Source of the DNA: an uncultured bacterium
Lineage (GTDB): Bacteria > Krumholzibacteriota > Krumholzibacteriia > JACNKJ01
Length of the DNA stretch: 64,000 bases
Direction of reading: 5' to 3'
Assembly (NCBI GenBank): GCA_963695095.1
Contig: CAVOFT010000001.1
Location: forward strand, 128,001-192,000
Part shown: positions 3,613 through 64,000 of the stretch, one piece after another
How the letters are laid out: every line of letters starts with the position of its first letter
How positions within the stretch are numbered: position 1 is the stretch's first letter
Notes under the pieces: model-generated
What the model saw: the letters and a program-made list of their open reading frames with translations, nothing else
The model's database searches: none
Told to the model about the DNA's origin: nothing
Program-made: the position numbers and the translations under genes

Positions 3613-3645
3613 GCCGGCACTATAGCACGCGACGGTGGCCGGGGT

Positions 3646-4209: not shown

Positions 4210-4246
4210 GGCGTTCCCATCGCGGTCGAGCGAGCCCCGGCCTGCC

Positions 4247-5949: not shown

Positions 5950-6052
5950 GGCGGCAGGCTAGGCCATCGCGCAGCACTCGCGCAAGTCGGGCGCGGCCTT
6001 GCCAGCGGGGGAGCCGCAGCCTATCATCGCCGCCTCACGAAAGGACCCCGCC

Positions 6053-17317: not shown

Positions 17318-18802
17318 CTAGCGAGCTCGGCGCCCGCGGCTCAGGCGCTCCAGCACGGCGCGCAGCATGCCGCGCGCCGGGGGATCCAGGCCCACGGCCA
17401 GCGCGCCATAGACGGCAATGCCCACCGGCACCCGCAGGGCCAGGGTGAGCGCATGGTTCTCGCTGGCCGGCACGGCGCGCACGGCGAGGTACATGGCCGC
17501 GCCGGCGAGGGTGTAGACGGCGAAGCTGCGCAGCGGGAAGCGCAGGCGCAGGAAGCGCTGGCTGAAGAGGCCGCCGCCGAAGACGTAGACTGCATAGGCG
17601 ATCAAGGTCGTGATCGCGGCGCCGACCATGCCCATCGCGGGGATCATCACCCAGTTCAGGCCCAGGTTGAGCAAGGCGGCCACCGCGAGGAAGAGGGCCA
17701 GCCAGCCCGTGCGCTTGGTGAGGAAGAGGCCGGCGAGGAAGGGATAGTAGGCGCCCTGGATCACCTTCGCCCCCAGCACCCAGGGAATCACCTCGGCGGC
17801 GGGCAGGTACTTGGCGCTGGCCAGCAGCCCGATCAGCTCCTCGGCCACGGCGCTGACGCCGAAGAGCACGGGCAGCGCGACGAGGCTGTAGTAGCGCAGG
17901 AAGCTCTCCAGGCTGGCGCGGGCGCTGTCGGGGCCCTCTTCGTTCCAGACGTTCATCGTCACGGGAATGAGGGCGCTGTTGAGGGCCGAGACGAGAAACA
18001 TCGTCACGTAGTTGGCCATGTTGTAGCCGGCCGTGTAGAGCCCCAGCTCTGCCTCGCTGCGGAAATAGCTGAGCAGGTAGCGGTCGCCCCAGTCGGTGAC
18101 GAAGCCCGAGACGTTGAGTCCCAGCAGCGGCAGGCCGTAGAGCATGGACTCCCTGACCACGGGCAGGTTCAGGACGCGCCAGCGCCAGTCCAGGCGCCGC
18201 AGCGCATAGACCAGGCAATAGAGGAAGATCAGCCCTTCGGCCAGGAGCGTGCCCGTGAAGAAGCCGGTCAGGCCCCAGCCGAAGACGGCGGCGAAGAGCA
18301 GGGGCACGCCCATGGCCAGGTAGCGCTCGGCCAGGATGATGCCCGAGCGCAAGACGGCGCGCTCCTGGCTCTGCACGATGCTGAGCACCATCTGCGTGAG
18401 GTTGCGAAAGAGGATGAGCCCCGCGCAGAGGGCGATGAGCCGCCGCGCCTCGCTGGTCAGCAGGCCTTCGGGGATGAAGACCACCAGCAGGAAGAGCAGG
18501 CTGATCGCCGTGCCGATGAGGACGCTGGCGCTGAGCATCGACGAGGCGAGAGCGCCGGTGCCGCCCGGGCGCTTGCCGGCCTTGTACTCGCCCCAGAGCC
18601 GGACCACCGCCGGCCGCAGGCCCATGCCGCTCAAGGTGCTGGCGAACTTGAAGGTGCTGTCGACCAGGCCGAGGACGCCGTACTGGGCCTGGCTGAAGAT
18701 GCGCGTGAAAATCGGGAAGGAGATGAAGCCCGTCAGGGATGAGAGCGTCTCCGCCACGACATAGAAAGAGGCCTGGCGGCCCACGCGCTTGAGGACGGAC
18801 AC
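17318..18802 (-). CDS. Wzx-like oligosaccharide flippase
   Basis: About 14 TM segments; 'PIFTRIFSQAQYG', 'GDRYLLSYF...ELGLYTAGY', 'GMVGAAITT'; GTG start with GGAG RBS. Confidence 0.85.
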   Translation of the reverse strand: MSVLKRVGRQASFYVVAETLSSLTGFISFPIFTRIFSQAQYGVLGLVDSTFKFASTLSGMGLRPAVVRLWGEYKAGKRPGGTGALASSMLSASVLIGTAISLLFLLVVFIPEGLLTSEARRLIALCAGLILFRNLTQMVLSIVQSQERAVLRSGIILAERYLAMGVPLLFAAVFGWGLTGFFTGTLLAEGLIFLYCLVYALRRLDWRWRVLNLPVVRESMLYGLPLLGLNVSGFVTDWGDRYLLSYFRSEAELGLYTAGYNMANYVTMFLVSALNSALIPVTMNVWNEEGPDSARASLESFLRYYSLVALPVLFGVSAVAEELIGLLASAKYLPAAEVIPWVLGAKVIQGAYYPFLAGLFLTKRTGWLALFLAVAALLNLGLNWVMIPAMGMVGAAITTLIAYAVYVFGGGLFSQRFLRLRFPLRSFAVYTLAGAAMYLAVRAVPASENHALTLALRVPVGIAVYGALAVGLDPPARGMLRAVLERLSRGRRAR

Positions 18803-18916
18803 GGCGGCTCCGGGACTGGGGACTGGGGGCGCGCGAGGTCGAGGCAGCCTAGGAGTGCCGACTGCCGCCGTCAATGCCTGCTTTGGCGCCGCGGCTCCGC
18901 GGCCGCGCCGCTCCCG

Positions 18917-31851: not shown

Positions 31852-33234
31852 TTGAGAACGACTCACGAACTCGAGGTTGATGCCCTCTGGGGCCAGATCC
31901 TCGAGAGCGTCCGCGGTCAGGTGAACAACCAGTGCTTCCGCACCTGGTTCCTCCCCACTCGGCTCGCGCGGATGGCCGAGCAGACCCTCCACGTCGAGGG
32001 CCCCAACCAGTTCTTCATGGACTGGCTCTCCGAACACCATCGCAGCACGCTCGAGTCCGCGGCCACGGATATCCTCGGCTGGCGCCCGTCGATCGAGTTC
32101 GTGGCGGCCGAAGGCGCCCCGGCGCCCCAGAAGCGAGAGGAACAAGAGGACCGCCGCAACCGCGGCAGCTTCTTCAGGCGCTACTCGCCCCCGGTCGTCA
32201 AGAGCGTCGGTCTACAACTCAATGCGAACTACAGCTTTGAGGAATTCGTGGTGGGCGACAACAACCGGATGGCCCAGGCGGCCAGCTTGGCCATTGCCGA
32301 AAAGCCCGGGCGCGTCTACAACCCGCTGTTCATCTACGGCGGGGTCGGCCTGGGCAAGACGCACCTGGCGCAAGCTATTGCCCATTTCGTCCTCGCCGAG
32401 CACCGCAAGGCCAAGGTCTACTACACCTCGAGCGAGCGCTTCATGACCGAGCTCATCCTGGCGATCCGCCAGGGCAAGACGCTTGAGTTCAAGAACCGCT
32501 ACCGCAGCGTGGACCTGCTCATCATCGACGACATCCAGTTTCTCGCCGGGAAAGAGAGCACCCAGGAGGAGTTCTTCCACACCTTCAACGCTCTCCACGA
32601 TTCCGAGAAGCAGATCGTCGTGACGAGCGATCGGCCGCCCAAGGACATCCGCGAGCTGGAAGAGCGCCTGGTCAGCCGCTTCGAATGGGGGCTGATCACC
32701 GACATCCAGCCGCCCGACCTCGAGACGCGGATGGCGATCCTGCGCAAGAAGACCGAGAAGGACAACATTCCCATCCCGGATGACGTTCTCTTTCTCATTG
32801 CCGAGAGCGTGCGCAACAACATCCGCGAGCTGGAGGGCAGCCTGATTCGCCTGCTCGCCTTTGCCGGCCTCACGAACAACCCCATCGACATCGATCTGGC
32901 GCGAGAGGTTCTCAAGGACTTCATCAAGCGTCAGCCGCGGACGCCGACCATCCAGGACATCCAGAAGCTCGTCGCCGAGTATTTCCACCTCACCCTCGAC
33001 CAACTGAAGTCCGAGAAGCGCAGCAGCCAGATCGTCCTGCCCAGGCAGGTGGCGATCTATCTTTGCCGCGAACTGACGGGCAAGAGCCTGAGCGAGATCG
33101 GCCGTGCCCACGGCGGCCGCGATCACACCACGGTCCTCCACGCCTGCCGCAAGATCGAGCGCCTGGTGCGCGATCCCGGCGAATTGCGCAGCAACGTACT
33201 CGAACTGCAGCAGCGCTTCACACCCATCCCTTGA
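31852..33234 (+). CDS. dnaA: chromosomal replication initiator DnaA
   Basis: 'YNPLFIYGGVGLGKTHL', 'IDDIQFLAGKESTQEEFFHTFN', 'NIRELEG', 'GGRDHTTVLHA'; TTG start with GGAGG. Confidence 0.98.
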   Translation: MRTTHELEVDALWGQILESVRGQVNNQCFRTWFLPTRLARMAEQTLHVEGPNQFFMDWLSEHHRSTLESAATDILGWRPSIEFVAAEGAPAPQKREEQEDRRNRGSFFRRYSPPVVKSVGLQLNANYSFEEFVVGDNNRMAQAASLAIAEKPGRVYNPLFIYGGVGLGKTHLAQAIAHFVLAEHRKAKVYYTSSERFMTELILAIRQGKTLEFKNRYRSVDLLIIDDIQFLAGKESTQEEFFHTFNALHDSEKQIVVTSDRPPKDIRELEERLVSRFEWGLITDIQPPDLETRMAILRKKTEKDNIPIPDDVLFLIAESVRNNIRELEGSLIRLLAFAGLTNNPIDIDLAREVLKDFIKRQPRTPTIQDIQKLVAEYFHLTLDQLKSEKRSSQIVLPRQVAIYLCRELTGKSLSEIGRAHGGRDHTTVLHACRKIERLVRDPGELRSNVLELQQRFTPIP

Positions 33235-41377: not shown

Positions 41378-41866
41378 CTAGTTCGCGATCGGGTAGTTGA
41401 CGCCCTGCGTAACGGGATGCCCCAGCAGGCGGCACATCGCCGCCACCTGCCCCATGTGGTGGTAGATGTGCGTCACCGTGCGCAGGACCACATGGGCCGG
41501 CGCGAGCGGGTGCTCCTTGCCGTCCCAGGTGGTCATCGGTCGCGCGGTGTTCAGCTCCGCGGCCGTGGCGCCCGCCAGGTAACCATCCGTGAACGCGAAC
41601 ACCTCCGCGCGCAGGGCCTCCAGGCTGGGCACGTCCGGGTACTTCTCCGCGTCGTTGTCGGCGTCCATCCGCCCGTGGATCACGCCCACCCAGTAGCGCT
41701 CGGCGGTGAGGGCGTGGTGTAGCTGCAGGCGCAGGGTGCCGTCGCCGAAGCCGTCCATGACGCGGTTCAGCGCTTCGAGATCGAGTTCTCCGCAGTGCGC
41801 GATCAGCTCGGCGAGCTTGCGGTGGGTGCGCTCGTGCAGGTCGCGCAGGCCTTCGGGCGTGTGCAT
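41378..41866 (-). CDS. DinB-family protein
   Basis: 'LHHALTAERYW' and 'HIYHHMGQV' metal-binding His motifs. Confidence 0.85.
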   Translation of the reverse strand: MHTPEGLRDLHERTHRKLAELIAHCGELDLEALNRVMDGFGDGTLRLQLHHALTAERYWVGVIHGRMDADNDAEKYPDVPSLEALRAEVFAFTDGYLAGATAAELNTARPMTTWDGKEHPLAPAHVVLRTVTHIYHHMGQVAAMCRLLGHPVTQGVNYPIAN

Positions 41867-42002
41867 GGCGGCTCCAGGGTCGGTGAGGAGACCGCCAGCA
41901 TAGCGGCCCCGCCCGGGTGCGGCAAGCCGTCCCCTTGTGGCCCTCCGGTCGCTTCCTTCATACTGCCAGCCTCGCTGAGCAACCCCTCACGAAAGGCAAA
42001 CC

Positions 42003-42368
42003 ATGGCGAACAACCCCGTCGTCCACTTCGAGATCGCGGGCAAGGACGGCCCGGCCTTGCGCGACTTCTACAGCAAGCTCTTCGGCTGGCAGTTCAAGCT
42101 CTGGGAGGGCGGCCCCGACTACGGCATGATCGGAGCCGGCGCCGAGAAGAACGCCATCGGCGGCGGCGTGGGCGCCACGCCGCCCGGCATGAAGCCCTAT
42201 GTCACCTTCTACATCGAGGTGGCGGACCTGCAGGCCAGCCTCGACATGGCCACGAAGCTGGGCGGCAAGGTCGTCCAGCCGCCGACGCCCATTCCCGACA
42301 TGGGCGCCAGCGCCATGTTCACGGATCCGGACGGCAACCTGATCGGCCTCTACAAGGGCAACAAGTAG
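42003..42368 (+). CDS. VOC/glyoxalase-family protein
   Basis: 'PVVHFEIAG', 'FYSKLFGW', 'FYIEVADL', 'FTDPDGNLIGL'. Confidence 0.9.
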   Translation: MANNPVVHFEIAGKDGPALRDFYSKLFGWQFKLWEGGPDYGMIGAGAEKNAIGGGVGATPPGMKPYVTFYIEVADLQASLDMATKLGGKVVQPPTPIPDMGASAMFTDPDGNLIGLYKGNK

Positions 42369-42452
42369 GCGAAGGGCGGGGGCCCCGCCCGAGGCCCTCG
42401 CCGCGCCCGCAACGGACCGGCGCTCCGGGCGCCGCTGCCGACAGGAGCGTCG

Positions 42453-43223
42453 ATGTCCCAGCACTTCCTCGTCCGGCTCGATGGCACCCGTCCCGGCTGG
42501 CCGGAGGGCATGACCGAGACCGAGGCGCGCGCGATGAGCGCGCACTTCGTCACCCTGCGCAGGCTGACCTGGGCGGGCAAGTGCCTGCTGGCGGGACCGG
42601 TCTTCGGGGACGGCGGCTTCGGCCTCGTGGTGCTGGAGGTGGAGGACGAGATCGAGGCCCGGGCCATCATGGACGCCGAGCCCTCGGTGGTGGCCGGCGT
42701 GCACACCTACTCGCTGCAGCCCATGGTGGCCTCCCTGCTCGCGGGGCGGCAGCGCTTCCCGGCGGCGCCGATCGCGCGGGCCATCGTGTGCGACGCCGAG
42801 GTGCCGATTTCGCGCGCCGAGGCCTGGCGGGCCTGGACCACGCCGGAGGGGCTCCGGCGCTTCTTTGCCCCGGGGGTGCGGGTGGAACTGCGCCCGGGCG
42901 GGCCCTTCGAGATCCTCTTTCGCGAGGACGGCCCCGAGGGCGAACGCGGCGCCGAAGGTTGCACCGTGCTCGCCTTCGAGCCCGAGCGAATGCTGGCCCT
43001 GAGCTGGAACGCGCCCCCCGAATTCCCCCAGGTGCGTCGCCAGCGCACGCAGGTGATCCTGCACTTCGAGGACGCCGGCCCCGGCCGCACGCGCGTGCGC
43101 CTCGTGAATCACGGCTACGGCGAGGGCGAGGAGTGGGACCGGGCCTTCGCCTACTTCGAGCGCGCCTGGGAGCAGGTCATGGCCAGCTTCGCCAGGGCCC
43201 TCTCCAGAACGGAGGCGCAATGA
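42453..43223 (+). CDS. YciI-like plus SRPBCC (Aha1-like) fusion protein
   Basis: N-terminal 'MSAHF...LLAGPV...GFGLVVLE'; C-terminal 'AWRAWTTPEGL..FF...LSWNAPP...TRVRLVNHG'. Confidence 0.75.
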   Translation: MSQHFLVRLDGTRPGWPEGMTETEARAMSAHFVTLRRLTWAGKCLLAGPVFGDGGFGLVVLEVEDEIEARAIMDAEPSVVAGVHTYSLQPMVASLLAGRQRFPAAPIARAIVCDAEVPISRAEAWRAWTTPEGLRRFFAPGVRVELRPGGPFEILFREDGPEGERGAEGCTVLAFEPERMLALSWNAPPEFPQVRRQRTQVILHFEDAGPGRTRVRLVNHGYGEGEEWDRAFAYFERAWEQVMASFARALSRTEAQ

Positions 43224-45715
43224 GCACAGAGCGCCCTGATGAGCAGCCCACCCGCCATCTCGACCCCGCATCCTCGGGCGACGAGGAGACCCTCGTCCAG
43301 GCCGCCGCCGCGGCCGCCCCGGCGGGCCGGCGGCTGCCGAGCAGCATCGGCGAGTACCGCGTCGTCGGCATCCTCGGCGAGGGCGGCATGGGCATCGTCT
43401 ACGAGGCCGAGCAGCCCTCGCCGAGGCGGCTGGTCGCCCTCAAGGTCGTGCGCGGTGCCGAGCTGGTCGACGAGCTGCGCCTCAAGCTCTTCGAGCGCGA
43501 AGCGACCACGCTGGCCCGCCTGGATCACCCCAACATCGGCAAGATCTATCAGTCCGGGCGCACGGACGAGGGCCGCCACTTCTTCGCGATGGAGCTGGTG
43601 CGGGGCCCCGACCTGGCGGCCTGGCTCGCCGCGCGGCCCGCGCGGCCCGATCGCGCGGAGATCGAGCTGCGCCTGCGGCTCTTCCGGCAGATCTGCGACG
43701 CCGTGCAGTACGCCCACCAGCGCGGGGTCATCCACCGGGACCTGAAGCCCTCGAACCTCATCGTCACCGAGGCGGTCGCTTCCGGCACCGGCTCCGAGGT
43801 GCTGCCGCCCCTGATGGTCAAGATCCTCGACTTCGGCCTGGCCCGGATCACGGAGGAGGACGTCGCGGCGACGCAGGTCACCGAGGTGGGGGTCATCAAG
43901 GGCACCCTGCCCTACATGGCCCCCGAGCAGGCCCGCGGCGAGGTCGGCGCCATCGACGTGCGCACGGACGTCTACGCGCTCGGCGTCATTCTGTACGAGC
44001 TGCTGACCGGCCGCCGCCCCTACGCGATCGATGCGGGCTCCCTGCTCACGGCGGTGCGGGTGATCTGCGAGCAGGCGCCGCGGCCGCTGGCCGCCGAGTG
44101 GCGGGCCTCGCTGCGCCTGGATCCCGACCTGGCCACGATCGCGGCGACGGCGCTGGAGAAGGACCCCGACCGCCGCTACGCCAGCGCGGCCGCCTTCAGC
44201 GAGGACGTCGGGCGCTTCCTCGGCTCGCAGCCGATTCTCGCCCGGCCGCCGAGCACCATGTACCAGATCAGGAAGCTGGTGGCCCGGCGCAAGCCGCTCT
44301 TCGCGACGGCCGCCGCCGCGCTGCTGCTCCTGATCGTGGCCGCGATCGGCCTGAGCGTCCTCTACCTGCGCTCGGAGGCCAACCTGTCGCGCGCCCTCGA
44401 GGCCGAGCGGCTGGCGCGGCGCGAAGAGGCCACCGCCGAGCGCAGCTCCAGCTTCCTCGTCGAGCTCTTCGAGCAGGCCAATCCGGAGCGCACGCGCGGC
44501 GAGACGGTGACGGCGCGCGCCGTCCTCGACGAGGGCGCGCGGCGCGTCAGCGAGGAGCTGGCCGGCGAGCCCGAGATGAAGGCCCGCCTGATGTTCACCC
44601 TCGCCCAGGTCTATCTCAGCCTCGGCATCGACACGGAGGCGCGGCGCCTCGCGGAGGCTGCGCTCGACCTGCGCCGCACCCGGCTGACCGCGGGAGATCT
44701 CGACATCGCCGCCAGCGTCCACCAGCTGGCGCGCGTGCTCGAGGCGCAGGGCAAGCCGGGCGAGGCCAAGGCCGGCTTCCAGGAGGCGATCGGGCTCTAC
44801 GAAGCGGCGGGCGAGCGCGGGCGCGAGGGCCTCATCGACGCGCTGGGCAATTACGGCTGGATGCTCGGCCAGTACGGCGAGCTCGGCGAGGCCGGCGCGG
44901 CCATCGACCGGGCCCTGGCCCTCGTGGAAGGCGAGCAGCCGGTCGACGAGGAGCGCCTGCTCAGCCTGCTCAACAACCAGGCCAGCATCAAGACGGACGG
45001 AAACGAGCCGGAGGCCGCGCTGGCGATCCTCGACCGGGCCCTCGCGCTGAGCCGGCGCCTCCATGGCGAGACCCACCACGAGACCGCCAACGTGCTCACG
45101 AACCTCCACGTGGCCAACTCGATCGCCGGCCGCCGCGAGGAAGCCGGCAAGCAGGCCGTCGCGGCCCTGGCCATCTACAAGGCGATCTACGGGGACGTGC
45201 ACCCCATGGTGGCCCGCGGCCTGGGCAACGTCGGCATCGGCCTCGCGCAGCAGGGCCGGCGGGACGAGGCCAGGCCCTACTTCGAGGCCGTCCTGGAGAC
45301 CCAGATCAAGCTCCAGGGCCCCGAGCACCCAGCAGTCGGCCAGAGCCTGATGAACCTGGGCCTGCTCAAGCTGGAGTCGGGGGATGCTCGGGCGGCGATC
45401 GTGGACCTCGAGCAGGCGGTGCGCATCCACGAGAAGGTCGCCCCCGAGGGCAGCCCCTCGCTCTCGATGTCGCTCTATCACCTGGGGATCGCGCGCCATC
45501 AGCGCGGCGAGGCGGCGGAGGCTCGCCGGCTCCTGCGGCGAACCCTGGCCATGGACGAGAAGATGTACGGCCCGGACTCGCCGGACGTGGCCGACGATCT
45601 CGAGGCGCTGGTGAGCATCGAACGCGACCTGGGCGCCACCGCCGAGGCCGCGCGGCTCGAAGCGCGAATGCTGGCGATCCGGGCGCAGGCTGCGGCCGCG
45701 GTACCCGAGGGTTGA
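43220..45715 (+). CDS. membrane Ser/Thr protein kinase with TPR repeats
   Basis: 'LGEGGMGIVY', 'VALK', 'HRDLKPSN', 'DFG', 'GTLPYMAPEQ', one TM, then kinesin-light-chain-like TPRs. Confidence 0.95.
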   Translation: MSTERPDEQPTRHLDPASSGDEETLVQAAAAAAPAGRRLPSSIGEYRVVGILGEGGMGIVYEAEQPSPRRLVALKVVRGAELVDELRLKLFEREATTLARLDHPNIGKIYQSGRTDEGRHFFAMELVRGPDLAAWLAARPARPDRAEIELRLRLFRQICDAVQYAHQRGVIHRDLKPSNLIVTEAVASGTGSEVLPPLMVKILDFGLARITEEDVAATQVTEVGVIKGTLPYMAPEQARGEVGAIDVRTDVYALGVILYELLTGRRPYAIDAGSLLTAVRVICEQAPRPLAAEWRASLRLDPDLATIAATALEKDPDRRYASAAAFSEDVGRFLGSQPILARPPSTMYQIRKLVARRKPLFATAAAALLLLIVAAIGLSVLYLRSEANLSRALEAERLARREEATAERSSSFLVELFEQANPERTRGETVTARAVLDEGARRVSEELAGEPEMKARLMFTLAQVYLSLGIDTEARRLAEAALDLRRTRLTAGDLDIAASVHQLARVLEAQGKPGEAKAGFQEAIGLYEAAGERGREGLIDALGNYGWMLGQYGELGEAGAAIDRALALVEGEQPVDEERLLSLLNNQASIKTDGNEPEAALAILDRALALSRRLHGETHHETANVLTNLHVANSIAGRREEAGKQAVAALAIYKAIYGDVHPMVARGLGNVGIGLAQQGRRDEARPYFEAVLETQIKLQGPEHPAVGQSLMNLGLLKLESGDARAAIVDLEQAVRIHEKVAPEGSPSLSMSLYHLGIARHQRGEAAEARRLLRRTLAMDEKMYGPDSPDVADDLEALVSIERDLGATAEAARLEARMLAIRAQAAAAVPEG

Positions 45716-54703: not shown

Positions 54704-55329
54704 AGATTCTCTGCGTCGACGACGACCGCGGCAGCCTGCTCCTCACCTGCCGTGTGCTGGAGCAAGCCTTTCCGGATGACGATCACTTCGCGGCCGGCTC
54801 CGGCGAGGAGGCGGTGCGGCTCCTGGGCAGCAAGGCCATCGACCTGGTGATCACGGACCTCGTGATGCCCGGCCTGTCGGGCATCGACGTGCTCGAGGAG
54901 GCCAAGCGGGAGCGCCGCGAAACGGAGGTGATCATGGTCACCGCGCACTCCTCGGTGGCCTCAGCCGTGCTGGCCATGCAGAAGGGGGCGCGCGACTACC
55001 TGGCCAAGCCCATCCATGGCGAGCTGCTCGTGGAGAAGGTGAGCCACCTGCGCGAGCTGCTGCACTCGCGGCGCGAGCTGGAGGACTATCGCTACGCGAT
55101 GGCCGTGCTCGAAAAGGACGCGACCTATGCGGCCGTCGGCAGCGAGCGCCGCCTCGATCAGCTTCAGCAGCGCGTCACGGCGGCACTGGCCGTGCTCGAG
55201 CAGCGCGAAGCGCCTGCCGATCAGCGACTCGAGCGCGTCCGGGCCCTGCTGGCCGCCGTCGAGATGGCGGCGATCCCGGCCGGCGTCCTCGGCGGGACGG
55301 CGGTGGCGCTCACCGCACTGGAGAAGTGA
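54700..55329 (+). CDS. response regulator (receiver domain plus coiled coil)
   Basis: 'ILCVDDD', 'VITDLVMPGLSG', 'MVTA', 'DYLAKP'. Confidence 0.9.
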   Translation: MKILCVDDDRGSLLLTCRVLEQAFPDDDHFAAGSGEEAVRLLGSKAIDLVITDLVMPGLSGIDVLEEAKRERRETEVIMVTAHSSVASAVLAMQKGARDYLAKPIHGELLVEKVSHLRELLHSRRELEDYRYAMAVLEKDATYAAVGSERRLDQLQQRVTAALAVLEQREAPADQRLERVRALLAAVEMAAIPAGVLGGTAVALTALEK

Positions 55330-56364
55330 TGGCAAGGATCCTGATCGCGGAAGACGACGGCACGAGCGCCCTCCTGCTCGAGCGCACCCTGCTCAAGGCG
55401 GGCCATGACGTGCTCAGGGCCGCCAACGGGGTCGAGGCCCTCGATCTGGCCCTGCGCGAACGCGTCGACGCCCTGCTCACCGACTGGATGATGCCCGGCA
55501 AGGACGGCCTCCAGCTCATCCGCGAACTGAGGCGGCAGCTGCCGCGCATGCCGCTGACCATGGTCATCACGGCGCTCTCCTCGCCCGAGGCGCAGCAGCA
55601 GGCGCTCGAGGCCGGCGCGGACGACTACCTCGCCAAGCCCTATCGACCCATCGACGTGATCGAACACCTGGACGCGCTCTTCGCCCGCCAGAACCAGAGC
55701 GCCGATGAGCCCGAGGCGCCGCCGCTGGTGGCGATGCCCGCCCGCCGCGGCATGACCCCGGAGCACCTCGCCGTCTGCGTAGCGGCAAGCAGCGGCGGCC
55801 CCAGCGCCCTGCGCACGCTGTTCAAGCAGCTCCCTGCCCAGACCCAGGTCGCCTATTTCGTCGTCCTGCACGGCCCGGAGCTGGGTGATCCAGAGCCTCG
55901 CCGACAGCCTGCAGCCCGAGGCGACGATGCCGGTGCGCCTGGGCGAAGACCACATGGTCATCGAGCCCGGGCACATCTACGTCGCTCCCGGCAGCCGGCA
56001 CATGTACATCGACCCCAGGGAGCACGACCTGCGGCTGAGCGAGGCGCCGCCGATCAACTACGTCAAGCCCGCCGCCGACCCGCTCTTCCAGAGCGTGGCG
56101 CTGGTCTACCGCGAATGCAGCCTGGGCGTGATTCTGACCGGGCTGGGTCGGGACGGCACGCGGGGAATCCAGCAGATCAACCGCTACGGAGGCCGCGTCC
56201 TGCTGCAGGACCCCGGGGCGGCCACGGGGTCCGCGATGCCGGACTCCGCCATCGAGAGCGGCGTCGCCGATGCCGTGCTCGCCCTGCCCGAGCTGCCGGG
56301 CGCCATCGAGGCCGAGATCCTCCGGCTTCTGCCGCGACTGCCCGCCGCGCAGGCGGTCAGCTGA
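55329..56364 (+). CDS. receiver domain plus CheB-type methylesterase (frameshift near 55878)
   Basis: 'ILIAEDD', 'TDWMMPG', then 'AASSGGP', 'VLHG', 'KPAADPLF.S', 'ILTGLGRDG', 'MPDSAI'; Ser/His/Asp triad present. Confidence 0.85.
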
Positions 56365-56403
56365 ATCCTCGCCCCTCCGGACGGGGGCCCCGGACGCCAG
56401 TCC

Positions 56404-57498
56404 CTAGATCAACTGGATGAAGCGGTTCTTGGAGCGACGCTTGAGCGCGCCGAAGGCCATGGCCAGCGGGAACATGACGGCCAGCAGCCCGAGCCAGCCC
56501 AGGAAGCTCTCCAGCACCGCCCCCTCGCGGTAGAAGAAGCCCAGCCGCCGCGTGAAGATGGCGAGCAGGGGAATGTGCACCGCGTAGAAGAAGAGCGGCA
56601 CGCGGCCGATGACGCCCAGGGGCTTGAGCAGGCCCGAGTGCATGCTGATGCGGCAGAAGAGCCCGACCATGAAGATCACGGCACCGGCGAACCAGAGCAG
56701 GTGCACGGCGTTGGGCGGGTACTTCTGCTCGAGGAAGAAGGACCAGCTGCCCAGCTCCGACCAGGGCGTCAGGTTGCCGTAGCCGCGGCCCGACCTCAGC
56801 AACACGGCCAGAACAACCAGCCCGAAACCGATCAGCATGCTCTTCGTCGAGCGCTCGGCGTGGGTCTTCCAGCCCTCGAACCAGAAGTGGGCCATCACCG
56901 AACCCACCAGCGCCATGCCGAACCAGGGCAGGGCGGGGTAGAGGTTGAAGGTGCCCGAATCGATGAACATCTGCATGGGCACGTGCACCCAGCCCTTGGC
57001 GCTGTAGGGAATCTGCAGCAGGAAGTGCTGGCCGAAGATGAGCAGCGCGCCCAGGGCGAGGCGCAGCTGCCAGCGCCAGGTGATGACCAGGGTGAGCAGG
57101 ATCATCGCCGTGCCGATGCAGGCGATGATGCTCCAGTGCAGAGGCCGCCAGGAATTGAAGCCGCTCCAGGCGGAGTTCACCCAGGTCATCTGGACGAGGA
57201 TCAGGAAGAGCCCGCGCTGGATGAAGTGCCAGCGCGAGGCCCAGTCGCCGGCGCCGCCCCGCCGCCGCCGCCAGTAGGCCCAGTAGACCATCGCCCCGTT
57301 CATGATCAGGAAGCCGGGCGCGCAGAGGTAGCCCATGTAGCGCAGGCCGAACTGGGCGCCGCTGCCGAAGAAGGGGTCCTGGAATTCGAAGGCGTACCAG
57401 ATGTGGTTGAAGTACTCGTTGCTGTGACCCAGGGCCATCATGATGCCGATCAGGCCGCGGAACTGATCGATGAAGTGAAAGCGTTCCTTGACGGCCAT
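56404..57498 (-). CDS. DUF1624/HGSNAT-like multi-pass membrane protein (putative acyltransferase)
   Basis: 'RFHFIDQFRGLIGIMMALGH', 'LCAPGF..NG', 'RGLFLI', 'YPALPW', 'KYPP', 'GRVPLFFYAVH'. Confidence 0.8.
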   Translation of the reverse strand: MAVKERFHFIDQFRGLIGIMMALGHSNEYFNHIWYAFEFQDPFFGSGAQFGLRYMGYLCAPGFLIMNGAMVYWAYWRRRRGGAGDWASRWHFIQRGLFLILVQMTWVNSAWSGFNSWRPLHWSIIACIGTAMILLTLVITWRWQLRLALGALLIFGQHFLLQIPYSAKGWVHVPMQMFIDSGTFNLYPALPWFGMALVGSVMAHFWFEGWKTHAERSTKSMLIGFGLVVLAVLLRSGRGYGNLTPWSELGSWSFFLEQKYPPNAVHLLWFAGAVIFMVGLFCRISMHSGLLKPLGVIGRVPLFFYAVHIPLLAIFTRRLGFFYREGAVLESFLGWLGLLAVMFPLAMAFGALKRRSKNRFIQLI

Positions 57499-57548
57499 GG
57501 GCAGCCCACCCTCCCGGCGCGGGGCCGCAGCCCCGGCGCAGCTGGTCG

Positions 57549-59957
57549 CTAGTTGCCGAAGTCGCTGCGCACCACGCGCAGGCCGACGAAGTCCAGACGG
57601 GAATCGGGCGGCGCCGTCTCGCGCGCGGCCGAACGGCAGGCCTTGGCCTGGCTGAACCAGCTGCCGCCGCGCAGCACCTTGAGAAAGCCACCGGCGGGGC
57701 CCGCGGCGTCGAGGCCGATCTGGCTCGGGTAGCCGGCATACCAGTCCCAGCACCACTCCATGGCGTTGCCGTGCACATCGGCGAGGCCGAAGGCGTTGGC
57801 GGCGAGGCCGCCCACCGCCTGGGGCGCGTCCCCGGAGTTGCCGCAGTACCAGCCGATCAGATCCAGTCGGGGATCCTCGCAGCCCTGGTCGCTGATGGCG
57901 CCGTTCGTGAAGGCGGTCGCGCTGCCGGCGCGGCAGAGCCACTCCCACTCGGCCTCGGTGGGCAGGCGCCAGCCGTCGGCCTCGCGGTCCCACTCGACGT
58001 CGGTGCCGTCCACGGCATAGGCCGGCGTCCGGCCCTCGAAGATCGAGAGGGCGTTGCAGTAGGCCACGGCCTCGTACCAGGTGAGCCCCAGCACGGGCAA
58101 GCTGCCGCCGAGGAAGCTGGAGTCCGGCAGGGCGGGCCCCATGCGGTCCTGCCACCGGGCCTGGGTGACCTCCTGCGTGGCAGCGATGGGCAGGCGGGTG
58201 AGCAAGGCGGGGTGCTGCGTCTCATCCGGCTCGCGACCGAGCTCGCTGAGCGGGCTGCCCATGGTGAAGACCACGTCGCCGACCAGGGGGCCGGACAGCG
58301 TGGCCGTCGTCGGCGTGTGGCCGTCGCCGTCGTCGAAGGCGGCGAGGAAGCTGTGCGCGCCGGGGGCGAGGGTCGTCTGCAGGCGGTAGAGCGCGTTCGT
58401 GGCGTGATCGCCGGAGACGAAGCCCATCGCCGTCGGCGCGCCGTCGATGACGAGATCGTGGGTGACGGGCACGTCGCCTTCGGGGTCCGAGTAGCTCACC
58501 GTGAAGGTGAAGAGCTGTTCATCGTCGCCGTAGGCCGGCGTGACGGCGAGGCCGAAGAGGAAGGTGCCGTCGGGGAAGGTCGTGGCGCTGGCGCCGACGC
58601 CGAGGCCGGACATCTGGCCGGCGTCGTCGGTGGCGCGCAGGGCGAAGTGGTACTGGGTCTCGGGCGTCAGGCCGCCCACGGAGAATTCCTGGGCCGTGCC
58701 GACCACGGCGGGCAGGGGCAGGCCGGTGACGGCGGTCGCCGCCGCCCAGGCGGTTTCGTTGTTGATCGGCGTCGCGGCATAGCGCAGGGCGTAGTGCTCC
58801 GCCTCGCCGATGTAGCGATCGTCGCCGGGCGCCTTCCAGCTCAGGCGGACGGCGGTGGCGCCCAGGGTCTCGGCGCTGAGCGTGTAGATGCCGCCGGGCG
58901 CTGTGCGATCCGCGAAGGGCGCGCCGGCCAGGATGAGCAGGCCCTCGTCCTCGTCGGTGACGAGCACCAGCCCGTCGTCGGTGAGTGCGACGCCGGTGGC
59001 GTTGCTGCTGCGGACGTTGCCCGCGTAACGCGGGTGGGCGGGGTCGCGCACGTCAACGACGTGCAGGCCGGCGTCGTTGCCCGCCACGAAGGCGAGGCCG
59101 TCGCGCACGGCGATGTCCACGCACCAGCCATCCAGGGGCATCCGCGACACGGGCACCGGCGCCTCGGCGCCATTGATGCGAAAGACGCTCATCCCCTGCC
59201 GCTTGTCGGCAACGAAGGCGTAGTCGCCCCAGATGTCCACGGCGAGCGCGTTGCCCGGCGTGTCCGTCCAGGAAACGAGCACCACCGAGTCGAGCACCAG
59301 TACGCGGGCATCGAGCACGGCCAGGCCCATCTGGTCGTCGGCCACGTAGGCGTAGCCGCCCTTCACCGCCAGGTCCATCGCGTAGCCGTTCGTGTCGGCG
59401 AAAACGCCGCCGTAGGCGAGCAGGCCCGGATACAGGGGGCTGGATTCGAAGACGCGCACGCCCTTCCAGCTCTCGGCCACGAAGAGGATGAAGGGCTGCT
59501 CGGGATTCTCCCGCTCGACGGCATGCATGCCGTTGCCGTCCACCGCCGTCGTGCCCTGGTTGAAGGAGACGGCGTTCGGCGGGTCGGTGATGTCGTAGGT
59601 GGTCACGCCTTCAGTGCCTTCGACGATCATCGCGATGTCGCGGATGACGCCCCCGGCAAAGCTGCGCAGCACCTTGATATTCTCGGCGTACTTCGTGGTG
59701 GGCACGGTCTTGACGAGCAGGGGTGCCGCGGGATTGCTGATGTCCACCACATGCAGGCCCGCCTGACCGCCGGCGACGAAGGCGTAGTCGCCGATGACGT
59801 CCACACTCTCGTTGATGCTGGGCAAGGGCAGGCGGCCGACCAGCGGGTAGGGCGAGTCGGGGATCTCGTAGAGATCCTCCTTCCCGCAACTGCCGGCGAG
59901 CGCGATCAGGGCGAGCGCCAGGGCGATGGCCGCGAGGCGGGTGGACTGCATGCTCAT
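57549..59957 (-). CDS. lipoprotein with LVIVD repeats, FN3 domain and FGE-sulfatase domain
   Basis: Lipobox 'LAGSC'; repeats 'YAFVA...GLHVVDISNP'; FN3 'LSWKAPGDD...GLTPETQYHF'; FGE 'RLPTEAEWE', 'NAFGL.D.HGN..EW', 'RGGSW'. Confidence 0.85.
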   Translation of the reverse strand: MSMQSTRLAAIALALALIALAGSCGKEDLYEIPDSPYPLVGRLPLPSINESVDVIGDYAFVAGGQAGLHVVDISNPAAPLLVKTVPTTKYAENIKVLRSFAGGVIRDIAMIVEGTEGVTTYDITDPPNAVSFNQGTTAVDGNGMHAVERENPEQPFILFVAESWKGVRVFESSPLYPGLLAYGGVFADTNGYAMDLAVKGGYAYVADDQMGLAVLDARVLVLDSVVLVSWTDTPGNALAVDIWGDYAFVADKRQGMSVFRINGAEAPVPVSRMPLDGWCVDIAVRDGLAFVAGNDAGLHVVDVRDPAHPRYAGNVRSSNATGVALTDDGLVLVTDEDEGLLILAGAPFADRTAPGGIYTLSAETLGATAVRLSWKAPGDDRYIGEAEHYALRYAATPINNETAWAAATAVTGLPLPAVVGTAQEFSVGGLTPETQYHFALRATDDAGQMSGLGVGASATTFPDGTFLFGLAVTPAYGDDEQLFTFTVSYSDPEGDVPVTHDLVIDGAPTAMGFVSGDHATNALYRLQTTLAPGAHSFLAAFDDGDGHTPTTATLSGPLVGDVVFTMGSPLSELGREPDETQHPALLTRLPIAATQEVTQARWQDRMGPALPDSSFLGGSLPVLGLTWYEAVAYCNALSIFEGRTPAYAVDGTDVEWDREADGWRLPTEAEWEWLCRAGSATAFTNGAISDQGCEDPRLDLIGWYCGNSGDAPQAVGGLAANAFGLADVHGNAMEWCWDWYAGYPSQIGLDAAGPAGGFLKVLRGGSWFSQAKACRSAARETAPPDSRLDFVGLRVVRSDFGN

Positions 59958-59987
59958 CCTCCGTCTGCGAAGGCCGCGCGTGCGCGG

Positions 59988-61619
59988 CTAGAACAAGGTG
60001 CTGCTGAAGCCGATCCAGTAGGTGCGGCTGATGTAGTTCTTGTCTTCCTTGATATCGCCCCACCAGGGTGAATCCACGTCGCGCTCGGCGTAGCCGAAGC
60101 CGAAGTCCATGTCCACCGCTTTGGGCAGGCCGAAGCTGGCGAAGACGGCCGGCAGGTCGCGGCTGCCCTTGAGCTGGTAGGTGTAGCTGTTGTCCTGCCG
60201 TCCGACGTGATAGGTGTCGTCCGAGATCGTCTGCGTGCCCTTCGCCGAGTAGTAGTCGACGCTGTACTGGGCGCGCACGCGCAGGTCGCTGACCAGGCGC
60301 TTGAGCGCGGCCTGGCGCGGCACCCAGCGCAGCTCGGCGTTGTAGGTGTTCCCTTTGTAGGTGCCGTCCGAGGCGGGGCTGGTATCCAGCGCCTCCCCCT
60401 CGACGTCGATGGCACGCGCGGCGGCGTTCTCGAAGCCGTAGCTGAGCGTGAGCCGCCAGGGACGGGCGATCGTCCAGTAGGCCGTGATGTCGATGCCGAG
60501 GGTGTTGAGATCGTTCTCCAGGTGCGGCTTGTTGTAGTAGTAGAGCTTCTTGGTCAGGGCGACGTTGGCGCTGAGGTCCTTGCGCAGCCGATGGCGCCAG
60601 GTGCTGACGATGCGATTGCGCTCCAGGCGGAACTGCTCGCTCACGACGGGCGTGGTCCCCGCGACGAGCGGCGGGCGGTCGTTGAGCTGCCGCAAGTACT
60701 TCGAGGGGCTGTAGGCGTAGTAGACCTCGAGGCTGTTGCGGCCGAAGAACTGCCGCGCGACGACGCGGAACTCGTGGTTGTCGAGCACGGTGTTCGTCGC
60801 GTACTGCTCGCGCGAGTAGCGGAAGCTGAAACGCGTCGCGCCCTGGGCGAGGAACTTGCGCTGCCCGGTGAGATCCAGGGAGGGCGAGAGGATGAGATCA
60901 TCCAGGCGCTCGATCTTCTGGAAACGCTCCTCGTTCCAGTACAGCCGCGTCAGGTACTCCTGCCGGAAGGCCTCGGACATCTGGAAGACATTGTCCTCGT
61001 AGGTGAAGCCGAGGCTGGCATCCAGTCCCCAGGTGAGGCCGAAGCGTTCGTTGGCGGCCCGGGGCCTGGGCGGCTTGGGGACCTGCAGCGGCTCCGTGTC
61101 CCACTGCGGCGGGCCCTCGTAGAAGAGGGCGACGTAGAGCGGGCCGCCGCCATCGAGGCTGCCGGTGAGCCGCAATTCGTGGCGGCCGGCAGGGATGGCG
61201 AGATCGAGCCAGGTGCCGCGGCTGGGGCTGCCCGCGCGGCCGTCGGCGTAGCCGCCCAGGCGGGAGGCGGCGAGCTCGAGGGGCAGTTCGGCGGGCAGGC
61301 CGGGCACGCCGGCCAGGCGCAGCAGGCCGCTGCGCGTGGTGCTGTCGCCTTCGGCGACGTGGGTCTTCACGAAACCGCTCAGGGTGCCCGGCCCCTCGAG
61401 GCGGTAGGTCAAGCCGGCCGCCGGCATCACGCAGTAAACCGCGGCGGCTTCGGCGCGGCCGAGCAGTAGCGTGGCCGGCTTGCCCTGCGGCCACAGCTCC
61501 ATGTCGGCAAGCGCGGGGCCGGCCAGAAGGAGCGCGCCGACCAGGGCGGCGAGGGCGGCCAGGGAGCACCAGGAATGGCGGGGCCTACGCTGCATGGAAT
61601 GGCAGATCCAGCGAATCAC
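59988..61619 (-). CDS. putative outer-membrane beta-barrel protein with an N-terminal beta-sandwich domain
   Basis: Signal peptide, aromatic-rich alternating strands, C-terminal 'YWIGFSSTLF' (terminal Phe, BAM-type signal); start may be ATG 61595. Confidence 0.65.
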   Translation of the reverse strand: MIRWICHSMQRRPRHSWCSLAALAALVGALLLAGPALADMELWPQGKPATLLLGRAEAAAVYCVMPAAGLTYRLEGPGTLSGFVKTHVAEGDSTTRSGLLRLAGVPGLPAELPLELAASRLGGYADGRAGSPSRGTWLDLAIPAGRHELRLTGSLDGGGPLYVALFYEGPPQWDTEPLQVPKPPRPRAANERFGLTWGLDASLGFTYEDNVFQMSEAFRQEYLTRLYWNEERFQKIERLDDLILSPSLDLTGQRKFLAQGATRFSFRYSREQYATNTVLDNHEFRVVARQFFGRNSLEVYYAYSPSKYLRQLNDRPPLVAGTTPVVSEQFRLERNRIVSTWRHRLRKDLSANVALTKKLYYYNKPHLENDLNTLGIDITAYWTIARPWRLTLSYGFENAAARAIDVEGEALDTSPASDGTYKGNTYNAELRWVPRQAALKRLVSDLRVRAQYSVDYYSAKGTQTISDDTYHVGRQDNSYTYQLKGSRDLPAVFASFGLPKAVDMDFGFGYAERDVDSPWWGDIKEDKNYISRTYWIGFSSTLF

Positions 61620-61625
61620 CGGGGC

Positions 61626-62528
61626 TCACCTCGTGCTCACGTCGGCTTCGGGGATGAGGATCTGGGCGGCGATGCCGCAGGCCTCGGGCCGCACGCAGCG
61701 CAGCTCGAAGCGGTGGCGGCCGCGGGGGACGGGCACGCGCAGCAGCTTGCGGTCGCCGGGCAGCACCTGAGGCTTGCCCACGTAAGCCGCGCTGTCCAGC
61801 TTGTCGGCCTGGTAGTGGTAGGTGTTCACGCTGACGCCGTCGCGCAGCAGCTCCAGCGCGTAGGGCTGGGCGCCGCTCATCTGATGATCGAAGTCCAGGC
61901 GGGTGTAGACCTTGAGCGTGGTCGGTCCGGTCACCGTGAAGCCGAGCGGGGAGTCGGCATGGAAGTGGTAGTAGGCCGAGGTGCTGCCGCTGGCGAACTG
62001 CAGCCTGGCCACGGAGTCGTACTGCTCGGGCGCGAAGGCCACCTCCTTGGTCTTCACCCGCTTGACTTCGCGGTAGAAGCGCGCTGCCGCCCGGCCCTCG
62101 CCCTCGACTTCGGCGTAGACCTGGATCTGATGCTTGCCGGTCGGCACGCGCACGGTGGTGCTGCGCAGGGCGGCCGCCTCGCCGCCACCGCTGCAGCGCG
62201 CCGCGCCGGCCAGGACATCGCTGCGGTAGCTGCGGCGCAGCACTTCCTCGCCGTCCAGGAGCACGCGCAGCGTGTAGACGCCCGTCGTCGCGTCGCCGGG
62301 CCCGAAGAGGTAGCGGCTGACGATCTTGAGCTTGCGCGGTCCGCGCAGCTCGATCACCGCCGGCTTGGCGGGATCCAGGAGCGTGTAGTCGAAGGACTGG
62401 CCCTTCACGGCGAGACAGACGTCGCCGGGGCTGTCCGCCGCCTTGAGGCTGCGCCAGGCGGCCGCAGCCTCCCGGGGCAGCAGAGCCAGCGCGCCGATGA
62501 AGAGCAGAGCGAGCCAAGGCCGTTTCAT
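61626..62528 (-). CDS. secreted hypothetical protein with two internal repeats
   Basis: Signal peptide; two similar domains of about 130 aa; ATGA overlap with the pgsW stop. Confidence 0.7.
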   Translation of the reverse strand: MKRPWLALLFIGALALLPREAAAAWRSLKAADSPGDVCLAVKGQSFDYTLLDPAKPAVIELRGPRKLKIVSRYLFGPGDATTGVYTLRVLLDGEEVLRRSYRSDVLAGAARCSGGGEAAALRSTTVRVPTGKHQIQVYAEVEGEGRAAARFYREVKRVKTKEVAFAPEQYDSVARLQFASGSTSAYYHFHADSPLGFTVTGPTTLKVYTRLDFDHQMSGAQPYALELLRDGVSVNTYHYQADKLDSAAYVGKPQVLPGDRKLLRVPVPRGRHRFELRCVRPEACGIAAQILIPEADVSTR

Positions 62529-63649
62529 ACCGAGTCACCATCCATTCGGCCGCTCCAGCGATCGAAGAGACCGCGGCGCAGCTCAGGAGCCAGGACCAGG
62601 ACACAAATGGCGCAGTATAGCACGAGCAAGGGAGCCGCCAGGGCCAGGCGATAGCTCTCGCGCACGAAGATGTCCCCCTCGCCCGGCTGGGGATGGTAAT
62701 CGGGCGCCACCGGCAGCCCCACCTCTCGCGCCAGATCCTCCATGTTGAGCAGGTGGATCACGGGGATGCCGCGCTCGGCCATCAGTACCATCGTGCCCTT
62801 GCGCGGGTAGTTGTGGGTGCCCAGGTCGAAGTTGAGGCCCTCGGGCAGCAGCACCTTGTTGCGGCTGGTGCCCAGGCTGGCCACGCCGCCGCCCACGTTG
62901 ATGAAGGCCTTCGCCCGGCGGCCGCGCAGGGCCTCGACGTAGAAGGTCATGCGCTGGGTGATGGCCTCCTCGATGTTCTCCGAGTCGAGCCGGCGCACCC
63001 CGTTGCGCTCGATCGCCACGCGCAGGCGCTCGCGACCCTCCGGGCTGAGGCCCTGGCCCATGTCGTCGCCGCCGCCATAGCTGGCGGCCGCCGAGCGGAT
63101 GTGGAAGATGTTCTCCTCCGCGAAGAGGCGCTCCATGTCCAGCCAGGTGAAGTCCGGATCGTTGGCGCCCCACATCGAAGCGCCCACGGAGGTGATCACG
63201 ACCGGCGCGAGCTCGAGCGTTTCCAGGGCCGCGAAAACGCTGATGTTGAGGCCGGGGAAGGAGCCCGAGAGCGCGACCGCCACGGGATCCCCCGGCTTGA
63301 GGCCGCAGCGGCGCAGGTAGCCGACGATGACCCCGGCCCAGTTGGGATTGAGCGTGGTGAGCTTGGAGCCGAGCACGCCCTGGGCGTTGGTGATCAGGCT
63401 GAACTCGGGGCCGATCAGGCCCGTGCCGGCCGGGTCGTTGACGAGGTCGAGGACGGCACCCTCCATGAGCCGGTGCCGGCGCACGGCGCCGAAGGCGAGC
63501 TCGGCCCGCCGTGCCGCCTCCAGCTTCAGGTCGTAGTCGCGCTGGCGCACGGGCTTGCGCGTCAACTCGAGCGAGGCCTGGAAGGCGAGAGCGAGCAGCG
63601 CGAGCCCCAGCAGGATGAGCTGGCGGCGCCTATCGGATCGCGAACTCAA
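62525..63649 (-). CDS. pgsW: poly-gamma-glutamate system protein
   Basis: 'NDPAGTGLIGPEFSLIT...KLTTLNPNWA', 'SGSFPGLN', 'SVGASMWGANDP..TWLDME', 'FINVGG', 'PVIHLLN'; directly after pgsC. Confidence 0.85.
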   Translation of the reverse strand: MSSRSDRRRQLILLGLALLALAFQASLELTRKPVRQRDYDLKLEAARRAELAFGAVRRHRLMEGAVLDLVNDPAGTGLIGPEFSLITNAQGVLGSKLTTLNPNWAGVIVGYLRRCGLKPGDPVAVALSGSFPGLNISVFAALETLELAPVVITSVGASMWGANDPDFTWLDMERLFAEENIFHIRSAAASYGGGDDMGQGLSPEGRERLRVAIERNGVRRLDSENIEEAITQRMTFYVEALRGRRAKAFINVGGGVASLGTSRNKVLLPEGLNFDLGTHNYPRKGTMVLMAERGIPVIHLLNMEDLAREVGLPVAPDYHPQPGEGDIFVRESYRLALAAPLLVLYCAICVLVLAPELRRGLFDRWSGRMDGDSV

Positions 63650-64000
63650 TGAGCCCCCCTCCCTGCGCCACCACCAGCGCCAGGCGCACGATGAAGGCCG
63701 CCATCAGCATGGTGCAAAGCGTCTCGAAGATGCCCTGCCGCAGCATCCAGTAGGCGATGAGCCCGGGGATGATGTAGCCGATGGACTGGACGATCGTGAA
63801 GTCGACGCCCAGGCCCATCCAGTCGCCCGCGATGAGCAGGAAGCGCGTGGCGTAGCCGAAGATGAAGCCGGCCAGCACGCAGAAGACCAGCGTCCGCCGC
63901 CCGTAGAGCAGGATGTGGCGGCTGAGCAGGCGCAGGCTGAGGTAGGTGATCAGCGCGGCGACGATGGTGCCCAGGATGCGCAGGGGCTGGTCCAGATAGA
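63630..64000 (-). CDS. pgsC: poly-gamma-glutamate biosynthesis protein PgsC/CapC (5' end outside the window)
   Basis: Hand translation '...YLDQPLRILGT...LLYGRR...IGYIIPGLIAYWM.RQG..ETL' matches PgsC motifs. Confidence 0.88.
   Translation of the reverse strand, partial: YLDQPLRILGTIVAALITYLSLRLLSRHILLYGRRTLVFCVLAGFIFGYATRFLLIAGDWMGLGVDFTIVQSIGYIIPGLIAYWMLRQGIFETLCTMLMAAFIVRLALVVAQGGGLIEFAIR

Follow-up and report, generated by a model that had tools for sequence, protein, structure and literature searches.

A conserved extension of the pgs operon in an uncultured two-membrane lineage encodes a candidate route for poly-γ-glutamate across the outer membrane

In a 64,000-nucleotide stretch of DNA from an uncultured bacterium (contig CAVOFT010000001.1, positions 128,001 to 192,000; hereafter the window), positions 56404-64000 are occupied by six co-oriented minus-strand genes, which make up the 3′ two-thirds of a pgs operon that is conserved in an uncultured two-membrane lineage. 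The first two genes encode PgsC and PgsW of the poly-γ-glutamate (PGA) system, and the four that follow encode a secreted two-domain protein, here called Rep, an outer-membrane barrel protein, a lipoprotein and a DUF1624 membrane protein. On comparative-genomic grounds, the cluster extends the pgs operon in a way that is real, strongly conserved and specific to one lineage. The function best supported is export of PGA through the barrel, a reading to which we give about an even chance of being correct. The six genes, in order of their direction of reading, are as follows.

63630-63998, minus strand: 3′ part of pgsC (CapC family), running off the window end at 64000; recognized by PF14102 and TIGR04011
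62525-63649, minus strand: pgsW, poly-γ-glutamate system protein, 374 residues; recognized by TIGR04332
61626-62528, minus strand: Rep, secreted two-domain protein, 300 residues; recognized by predicted fold and synteny
59988-61619, minus strand: outer-membrane barrel protein, 535-543 residues; recognized by predicted fold and terminal Phe
57549-59957, minus strand: lipoprotein, 802 residues; recognized by lipobox and by LVIVD, fn3 and FGE-sulfatase matches
56404-57498, minus strand: DUF1624/HGSNAT_cat polytopic membrane protein, 364 residues, final gene of the operon; recognized by PF07786

The window has a GC content of approximately 70% and is rich in spurious long open reading frames (ORFs), and every gene was therefore vetted by homology and by GC content at each codon position. 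Third-position GC (GC3) is 0.91-0.96 in the first five ORFs, and all six genes have homologs in the same order elsewhere, so that these are genuine genes rather than ORFs arising by chance in DNA of 70% GC. The genes are tightly joined: pgsC and pgsW overlap by 20 nt, pgsW and the Rep gene share a 4-nt ATGA overlap, the Rep and barrel genes are separated by 6 or 30 nt according to the barrel start chosen, and gaps of 30 nt and 50 nt precede the lipoprotein and DUF1624 genes, respectively. The barrel ORF spans 59988-61619 when read from a GTG, or 59988-61595 from an ATG, the ATG form corresponding to the 535 residues of database entry P0001. The DUF1624 protein is better started at the ATG at 57498 (MAVKERF..., 364 residues) than farther upstream. 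No terminator-like sites were found on the minus strand within the cluster; the two that were seen are both on the plus strand, against a chance expectation of 2.2. The initial annotation of this DNA had described six co-oriented, tightly packed genes, a description that stands, with overlaps and gaps of at most 50 nt and with two start codons slightly corrected. The cluster is closed off by a convergent CheB-like gene (56364-56420).

A genome scan with the Rep alignment as bait recovered 31 loci from species-representative genomes, 42-63% identical in Rep. The scan pattern was RLDFDH[TR]M and the window reads RLDFDHQM; the window's own variant and its source genome are outside the 31 loci. 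Synteny was counted by local profile searches of all ORFs in each locus, the denominators being the loci whose contigs have room for the gene in question. Wherever there is room, the order pgsB-pgsC-pgsW-Rep-barrel-lipoprotein-DUF1624 is kept on one strand. PgsC is present in 28/28 loci, PgsW and the barrel each in 31/31, and DUF1624 in 27/27. The lipoprotein gene follows the barrel gene in 28 of 29 loci by a strict distance rule, and also in locus L025, where a stray alignment intervened. Immediately upstream of pgsC lies pgsB (27/27 loci), which in the window's genome would be sited beyond position 64000.

In the relatives, the operon is larger than the initial annotation had proposed: its six genes are confirmed, and further co-oriented genes stand ahead of pgsB. 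All 25 relatives with room have a gene there for a β-helix protein, and a C25 (gingipain/PorU-like) peptidase of approximately 1290 residues is encoded there in 25 of 26, with a truncated match in the remaining locus (L027). Both proteins carry C-terminal domains of the type IX secretion system (T9SS) or FlgD-Ig type. In locus L001 this β-helix and C25 peptidase region, at 1493-7023, heads the operon, and we expect the corresponding genes of the window's genome just past position 64000. Farther upstream, the relatives carry a divergently transcribed gene for another C25 peptidase, which has a propeptide. A candidate tenth co-oriented gene, U1, was rejected as a shadow frame (GC at the first codon position 0.92-0.98, GC3 0.65) lying opposite the divergent C25 peptidase gene, and with its withdrawal the relatives have nine co-oriented conserved genes.

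The 31 loci carry inconsistent phylum labels: where there is one, it is mostly Fibrobacterota (11 loci) or Krumholzibacteriota (4), with Latescibacterota and Gemmatimonadota once each, and 14 loci have none. The closest named relatives of the cluster proteins are labeled Candidatus Krumholzibacteria. Split reading frames occur in long-read "tig" or older assemblies, affecting pgsW in L025, DUF1624 in L023 and the C25 peptidase in L027, and are probably assembly frameshifts. The barrel protein of L017 has approximately 175 unmatched N-terminal residues.

PgsB, PgsC and PgsW are shown by homology to be the predicted inner-membrane machinery for PGA. The part of PgsC encoded in the window matches PF14102 with 74 bits (1.5e-20; cutoff 27). 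It scores 70 bits with TIGR04011, under the 96-bit cutoff, because approximately 29 N-terminal residues lie beyond the window end; the full-length ortholog in L001 scores 120 bits. PgsB of L001 reaches 389 bits with TIGR04012 against a cutoff of 223, and the PgsW of the window 312 bits with TIGR04332 against a cutoff of 100. Hydropathy indicates hydrophobic segments in PgsC, and in PgsW the hydrophobic segments 9-30 and 332-359 bracket a soluble domain of approximately 300 residues. No relative of PgsW was found in the PDB by sequence profile (0 matches). The PgsW family is large (2314 homolog clusters), with clusters recorded for Spirochaetota, Aminicenantota and Bipolaricaulota, and the symbol pgsW is the one that RefSeq gives to a homolog in Cetobacterium. 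A search for PgsA/CapA (PGA_cap) found none in 56404-64000 and gave 0 matches in the 31 related loci.

Rep and the barrel protein are two new, uncurated protein families. Rep has no match in Pfam or NCBIfam, and a PDB profile search returned only one match, with an E-value of 1.7; a word search found 73 homolog clusters. The AlphaFold2 (AF2) model of Rep has a predicted local distance difference test score (pLDDT) of 92 and consists of two tandem β-jelly-rolls (β-sandwiches); Foldseek matched these best to CBM22 and CBM51 modules in tandem and placed BcsB-BcsC at rank 29. The protein begins with a hydrophobic segment (residues 6-24). Rep is basic, as are most of its homologs, with an isoelectric point (pI) above 8 in 29 of 37, and 17 alignment columns of the 37 homologs are at least 90% K/R/H. 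We propose that Rep serves as a periplasmic adaptor and polymer guide.

The barrel protein has a signal peptide, an N-terminal jelly-roll domain (N-domain) at approximately 39-170 and then some 14 predicted transmembrane β-strands at 195-540. Its N-terminal hydrophobic segment is at 15-40, and its C-terminus reads ...STLF, with L542 and F543 invariant in all 20 barrel sequences aligned. An AF2 model built from a 20-sequence alignment (pLDDT 71, predicted template modeling score (pTM) 0.52) contains a β-sandwich at approximately 70-168 and 14 long antiparallel strands at 195-540, along most of which hydrophobicity alternates. Foldseek against the PDB matched OccD2/OprD, maltoporin and OmpG at a probability of 1.0, with a template modeling score on the target of up to approximately 0.5 for the 14-stranded OmpG; PelBC appeared at rank 36, and CBM6 matched the N-domain. 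The product of 59988-61619 had been put forward as a membrane barrel, and the 14-strand model and the porin matches bear this out at moderate confidence. By sequence, the window protein has no Pfam match, and the PDB profile search gave 0 matches. The word search found 21 barrel homolog clusters, and an exhaustive profile search raised this to 370 barrel-family representatives at E ≤1e-3, of which 130 are at ≤1e-10. Many of the family members consist of the barrel alone (350-390 residues), and a Pfam scan of 103 members matched OMP_b-brl in 15, Porin_4 in 7, DUF2490 in 6 and BBP2_2 in 4. Complex prediction with the mature barrel and mature Rep gave a score of 0.01 (mark 0.32), a result that counts neither for nor against binding.

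Several observations join PgsW, Rep and the barrel to one another. The barrel N-domain is homologous to Rep domain 1 (hhalign probability 96.7%, E-value 3.6e-10), and the Rep ORF is matched by the barrel profile in 20/31 loci. In two of the 31 loci (L020 and L029), PgsW and Rep form a single ORF, and such fusions also occur in four of the best 120 PgsW matches (P0330, P0333, P0344 and the partial P0315). The fusions keep the hydrophobic leader of Rep after the C-terminal membrane segment of PgsW, an arrangement that fits a predicted location of Rep outside the cytoplasm. In eight of the best 150 barrel-family representatives, the barrel is preceded by two or three Rep-like domains. One family member, P0121, has tetratricopeptide repeats (TPRs) ahead of the barrel, with a weak TPR_Slam match, and so shares the TPR-then-barrel layout of PgaA/BcsC-type exporters. 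No other evidence argues as strongly as these fusions for joint action of PgsW, Rep and the barrel across the envelope.

The lipoprotein, with the lipobox ...LAGS-C, is composed of an LVIVD β-propeller, an FN3 domain, a linker domain and a C-terminal domain that resembles the formylglycine-generating enzyme (FGE) and has the C-type-lectin fold. Pfam matches are to LVIVD (102 bits over three stretches), fn3 (29.5 bits) and FGE-sulfatase PF03781 (111 bits; cutoff 23). Searched against the PDB by sequence, the C-terminal domain is closest to TvpA (2y3c, 2e-28), followed by PvdO, true FGEs at approximately 1e-12 and PorK at 1.5e-10. It also matches GldK TIGR03525 (1.3e-13), and every score is far under the equivalog cutoffs. 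At the positions aligned with what we take to be the catalytic Cys pair of FGE (chain 2aft_X), the lipoprotein has Ser and Cys. A repeat search of the window found no template repeat for diversification of the TvpA-like domain involving 57549-58000. We read the protein as a probable scaffold attached to the outer membrane, or a surface component, and not as a modifying enzyme. The last gene encodes a predicted polytopic membrane protein of the acyltransferase-3 (AT3)/HGSNAT type, with 50 bits to PF07786 against a cutoff of 22, a weak PF01757 match and several hydrophobic segments by hydropathy. The roles of the lipoprotein and the DUF1624 protein are the least certain parts of the model that follows.

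In that model, the nascent PGA polyanion would exit PgsBC into the large extracytoplasmic domain of PgsW, be handed along basic jelly-roll domains, those of Rep and then the barrel N-domain, and leave the cell via the barrel of approximately 14 strands. The DUF1624 protein may carry an acyl group over the inner membrane and attach it to the amino end of PGA or to another envelope acceptor. Such a pathway would have its counterpart in synthase-dependent exopolysaccharide secretion, BcsB/BcsC or PgaA being the analogs. We also consider a bolder version, in which PgsBC feeds PGA via PgsW into a relay of homologous basic jelly-roll domains, whether free or joined to PgsW or to the barrel, and on to a new family of 14-stranded outer-membrane barrels, making this the first trans-envelope machine to secrete a polyamide, while trimming of the polymer or its attachment at the surface falls to the T9SS-type β-helix protein and the C25 sortase-like peptidase, in the manner of CapD in Bacillus; we regard this version as possible and somewhat doubtful. 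The proposal in the initial annotation of a Gram-negative PGA secretion system draws strength from the synteny, the barrel fold, the fusions and the homology between Rep and the N-domain, and is weakened by the FGE-like domain and the charge of the lipoprotein and by the scarcity of groups on PGA that an acyltransferase could modify.

A number of points weigh against PGA export through the barrel. The window stops inside pgsC, so that pgsB falls outside it. The confidence of the barrel model is moderate, as its pLDDT and pTM indicate. A positive pore is expected for a polyanion channel, AlgE being an example with an electropositive pore; by a crude face assignment, the lumen-facing residues of the window protein number 17 K/R and 17 D/E, and those of its homologs, by the same crude assignment from sequence, 16-23 K/R and 11-17 D/E. 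This charge estimate, being balanced, is uninformative. The barrel N-domain has a pI of 5.6 and is not basic, and in 10/31 loci (L015-L019, L021-L023, L025 and L027) it is undetectable, the matches beginning at profile position 156-179. The roles of anchor and modifying enzyme in the initial annotation are also weakened: the FGE-like domain looks non-catalytic, so that a formylglycine enzyme is unlikely, and the mature lipoprotein is acidic (pI 4.3) and therefore awkward as a polyanion anchor. PGA also has few acceptor groups for an AT3/HGSNAT-type acyltransferase, little beyond its amino terminus. Because the loci were selected with Rep, the synteny establishes pgsBCW as the dedicated setting of Rep and the barrel, not that every pgsW has the module. 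In plasmid records, tblastn turned up a single pgsW, that of Cetobacterium somerae (NZ_CP143320.1) from the Fusobacteriota, likewise a two-membrane phylum, where RefSeq annotates pgsB-pgsC-pgsW with a γ-glutamyltransferase gene upstream. Within 9 kb of this pgsBCW, neither Rep, the barrel (with narrow or broad profiles), the lipoprotein nor DUF1624 was found, and the module is therefore lineage-specific and not a general requirement. The earlier expectation that the Rep and barrel genes are conserved near pgsW is borne out in all 31 Rep-baited loci and fails at this single Cetobacterium locus.

The genes downstream of pgsW could be explained in other ways. Slam-type barrels, which have 14 strands, export lipoproteins encoded nearby, and the barrel here might likewise flip the adjacent lipoprotein to the surface; Rep and the N-domain would then act as receptors in the periplasm, and PGA would cross otherwise or be handled by the lipoprotein. 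We consider this unlikely, even though it accommodates the predicted strand number, the lipoprotein gene directly after the barrel gene in nearly every locus with room, and, in P0121, the TPRs that precede the barrel and weakly match TPR_Slam. In a language-model atlas, moreover, the barrel part places a SlipAM (PF04575) cluster at rank 14 with a score of 0.95 and 174 shared features, which also tells against export of PGA through the barrel; that score comes from a partial protein, for which the tool has no calibration, and the other atlas look-alikes are unnamed clusters of approximately 380 residues from Acidobacteriota, Ignavibacteriota and Bacteroidota. A SlipAM match is absent from the window barrel, from the 20 A1 barrel members (E ≤10) and from 17 distant members, and the 25 families that the 103 barrel-family members matched most frequently do not include SlipAM. 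The PgsW-Rep fusions would be left unexplained by a lipoprotein exporter.

Synteny by itself leaves the direction of transport undefined, and the four downstream genes might instead act on PGA that stays within the envelope, holding it back or remodeling it in the periplasm or on the inner face of the outer membrane, for instance as a hydrated envelope layer, and the barrel would be no more than an anchor for the jelly-roll. A lumen charge that is not positive agrees with such a role, as does a lipoprotein C-terminal domain nearer to TvpA, a binding protein, and PorK, a ring lipoprotein, than to an enzyme. The barrel, however, is kept without a detectable N-domain in the 10 loci named above, which makes the barrel proper the conserved portion, and its fold matches open porins; we judge the anchor role improbable. 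It is also conceivable that the association is positional, or that the product is not PGA, and that the accessory genes serve uptake or surface display linked to the upstream T9SS-type cargo, since the operon of the relatives opens with two proteins bearing T9SS-type C-terminal domains, Cetobacterium pgsBCW manages without the module, and PGA has little to offer an AT3-type acyltransferase in the way of acceptor groups. Against this stand the gene order and tight spacing, preserved though Rep is only 42-63% identical, the covalent PgsW-Rep fusions, and the occurrence of Rep only next to pgsW in 31/31 loci, and we likewise judge this reading improbable.

The window also contains the replication-origin region, with dnaA, dnaN, recF, gyrB, gyrA, yidC, mnmE, mnmG, rsmG, parA and parB. 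This region lies at 20737-41370, with parB, parA, rsmG, mnmG, mnmE, jag and yidC on the minus strand, and dnaA (31852-33234) followed by dnaN, recF, gyrB and gyrA on the plus strand. A YidC with a periplasmic domain and a protein with a TonB C-terminal domain are both encoded in the window, and these predicted features fit a two-membrane cell. A PGA_cap (CapA/PgsA-family) protein of 449 residues (PF09587, 185 bits) is encoded at 15094-16443 on the minus strand, approximately 40 kb from the pgs cluster, with a gene for a Wzx/HfsF-like polysaccharide flippase (17318-18874) nearby. On the plus strand, 41795-45715 is a 1306-residue ORF with a Ser/Thr protein kinase domain and TPRs, unrelated to the pgs cluster. 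The CheB-like gene next to the cluster (55326-56420, plus strand) is broken across two frames: the first encodes the receiver domain and the first 36 methylesterase positions, and the remainder is in the other frame from 55885. Its ortholog in L001 is a single intact ORF of 383 residues, and the split is a frameshift or sequencing error.

To our knowledge, PGA capsules and slimes are understood only for single-membrane, Bacillus-type systems. The locus described here is a concrete candidate for a PGA export route, in which Rep and the barrel are physically tied to PgsW by natural fusions. If the candidate route is real, it would extend the principle of synthase-dependent secretion from polysaccharides to a polypeptide-like polymer, and would supply components with which Gram-negative production hosts could be made to secrete PGA. 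In published work, PGA capsules are modeled on CapBC, with CapA and CapE as accessory proteins, and pgs genes are reported across many phyla (PMC5542703). The reference list of another article (PMC3815933) points to Fusobacterium nucleatum as the first Gram-negative PGA producer. A 2026 review of the envelope (PMC13721041), in its portions on PGA, treats the polymer for Bacillus only. Literature searches on PGA in Gram-negatives or at the outer membrane yielded, among the matches listed, no described route for PGA across the outer membrane, and a literature search under the name PgsW gave nothing on this gene among the matches listed.

The cluster shares with the Bacillus PgsBCA(E)/CapBCADE systems a tight operon and equivalog-level scores for the synthase proteins, for PgsC here and for PgsB in the relatives. 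It also shares a peptidase gene beside the synthase genes, found here in the relatives; in Bacillus, the neighboring peptidase genes are pgdS and capD. It differs from them in being without PgsA/CapA, whose place is taken by PgsW, and in having four extra envelope genes, including that for an outer-membrane barrel, in what is here a two-membrane host. The minimal pgsB-pgsC-pgsW locus of Cetobacterium has the identical three core genes in the same order, but with a γ-glutamyltransferase gene upstream and without the four-gene module.

The logic of the cluster described here is the same as that of the synthase-dependent exopolysaccharide systems BcsA/B/C, PgaABCD, AlgK/AlgE and PelB/C, in which an inner-membrane polymerase, periplasmic polymer-binding β-sandwiches and a dedicated barrel are encoded in one operon, with a membrane acyltransferase in addition. 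The polymer here, in contrast, would be a polyamide made by an ATP-dependent ligase, and the periplasmic module is a jelly-roll rather than TPRs. In Pfam and PDB profile searches, the barrel has no sequence relation to the PgaA, BcsC, AlgE or PelB families, its relatives matching generic barrel families only, and its predicted strand number of approximately 14 is lower than that of PgaA, BcsC and AlgE, whose barrels have 16-18 strands. With Slam (SlipAM/DUF560), it shares a similar predicted barrel size, a periplasmic N-terminal module and a lipoprotein gene next to it; it differs in having no PF04575 match and an N-terminal jelly-roll in place of TPRs, and in being tied to pgs and linked to PgsW through Rep. 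The C-terminal domain of the lipoprotein has the FGE fold of TvpA (2y3c) and PorK/GldK, and PorK is also a lipoprotein, whereas the protein described here adds an LVIVD propeller and an FN3 domain, and its gene has no diversification template repeat in the window.

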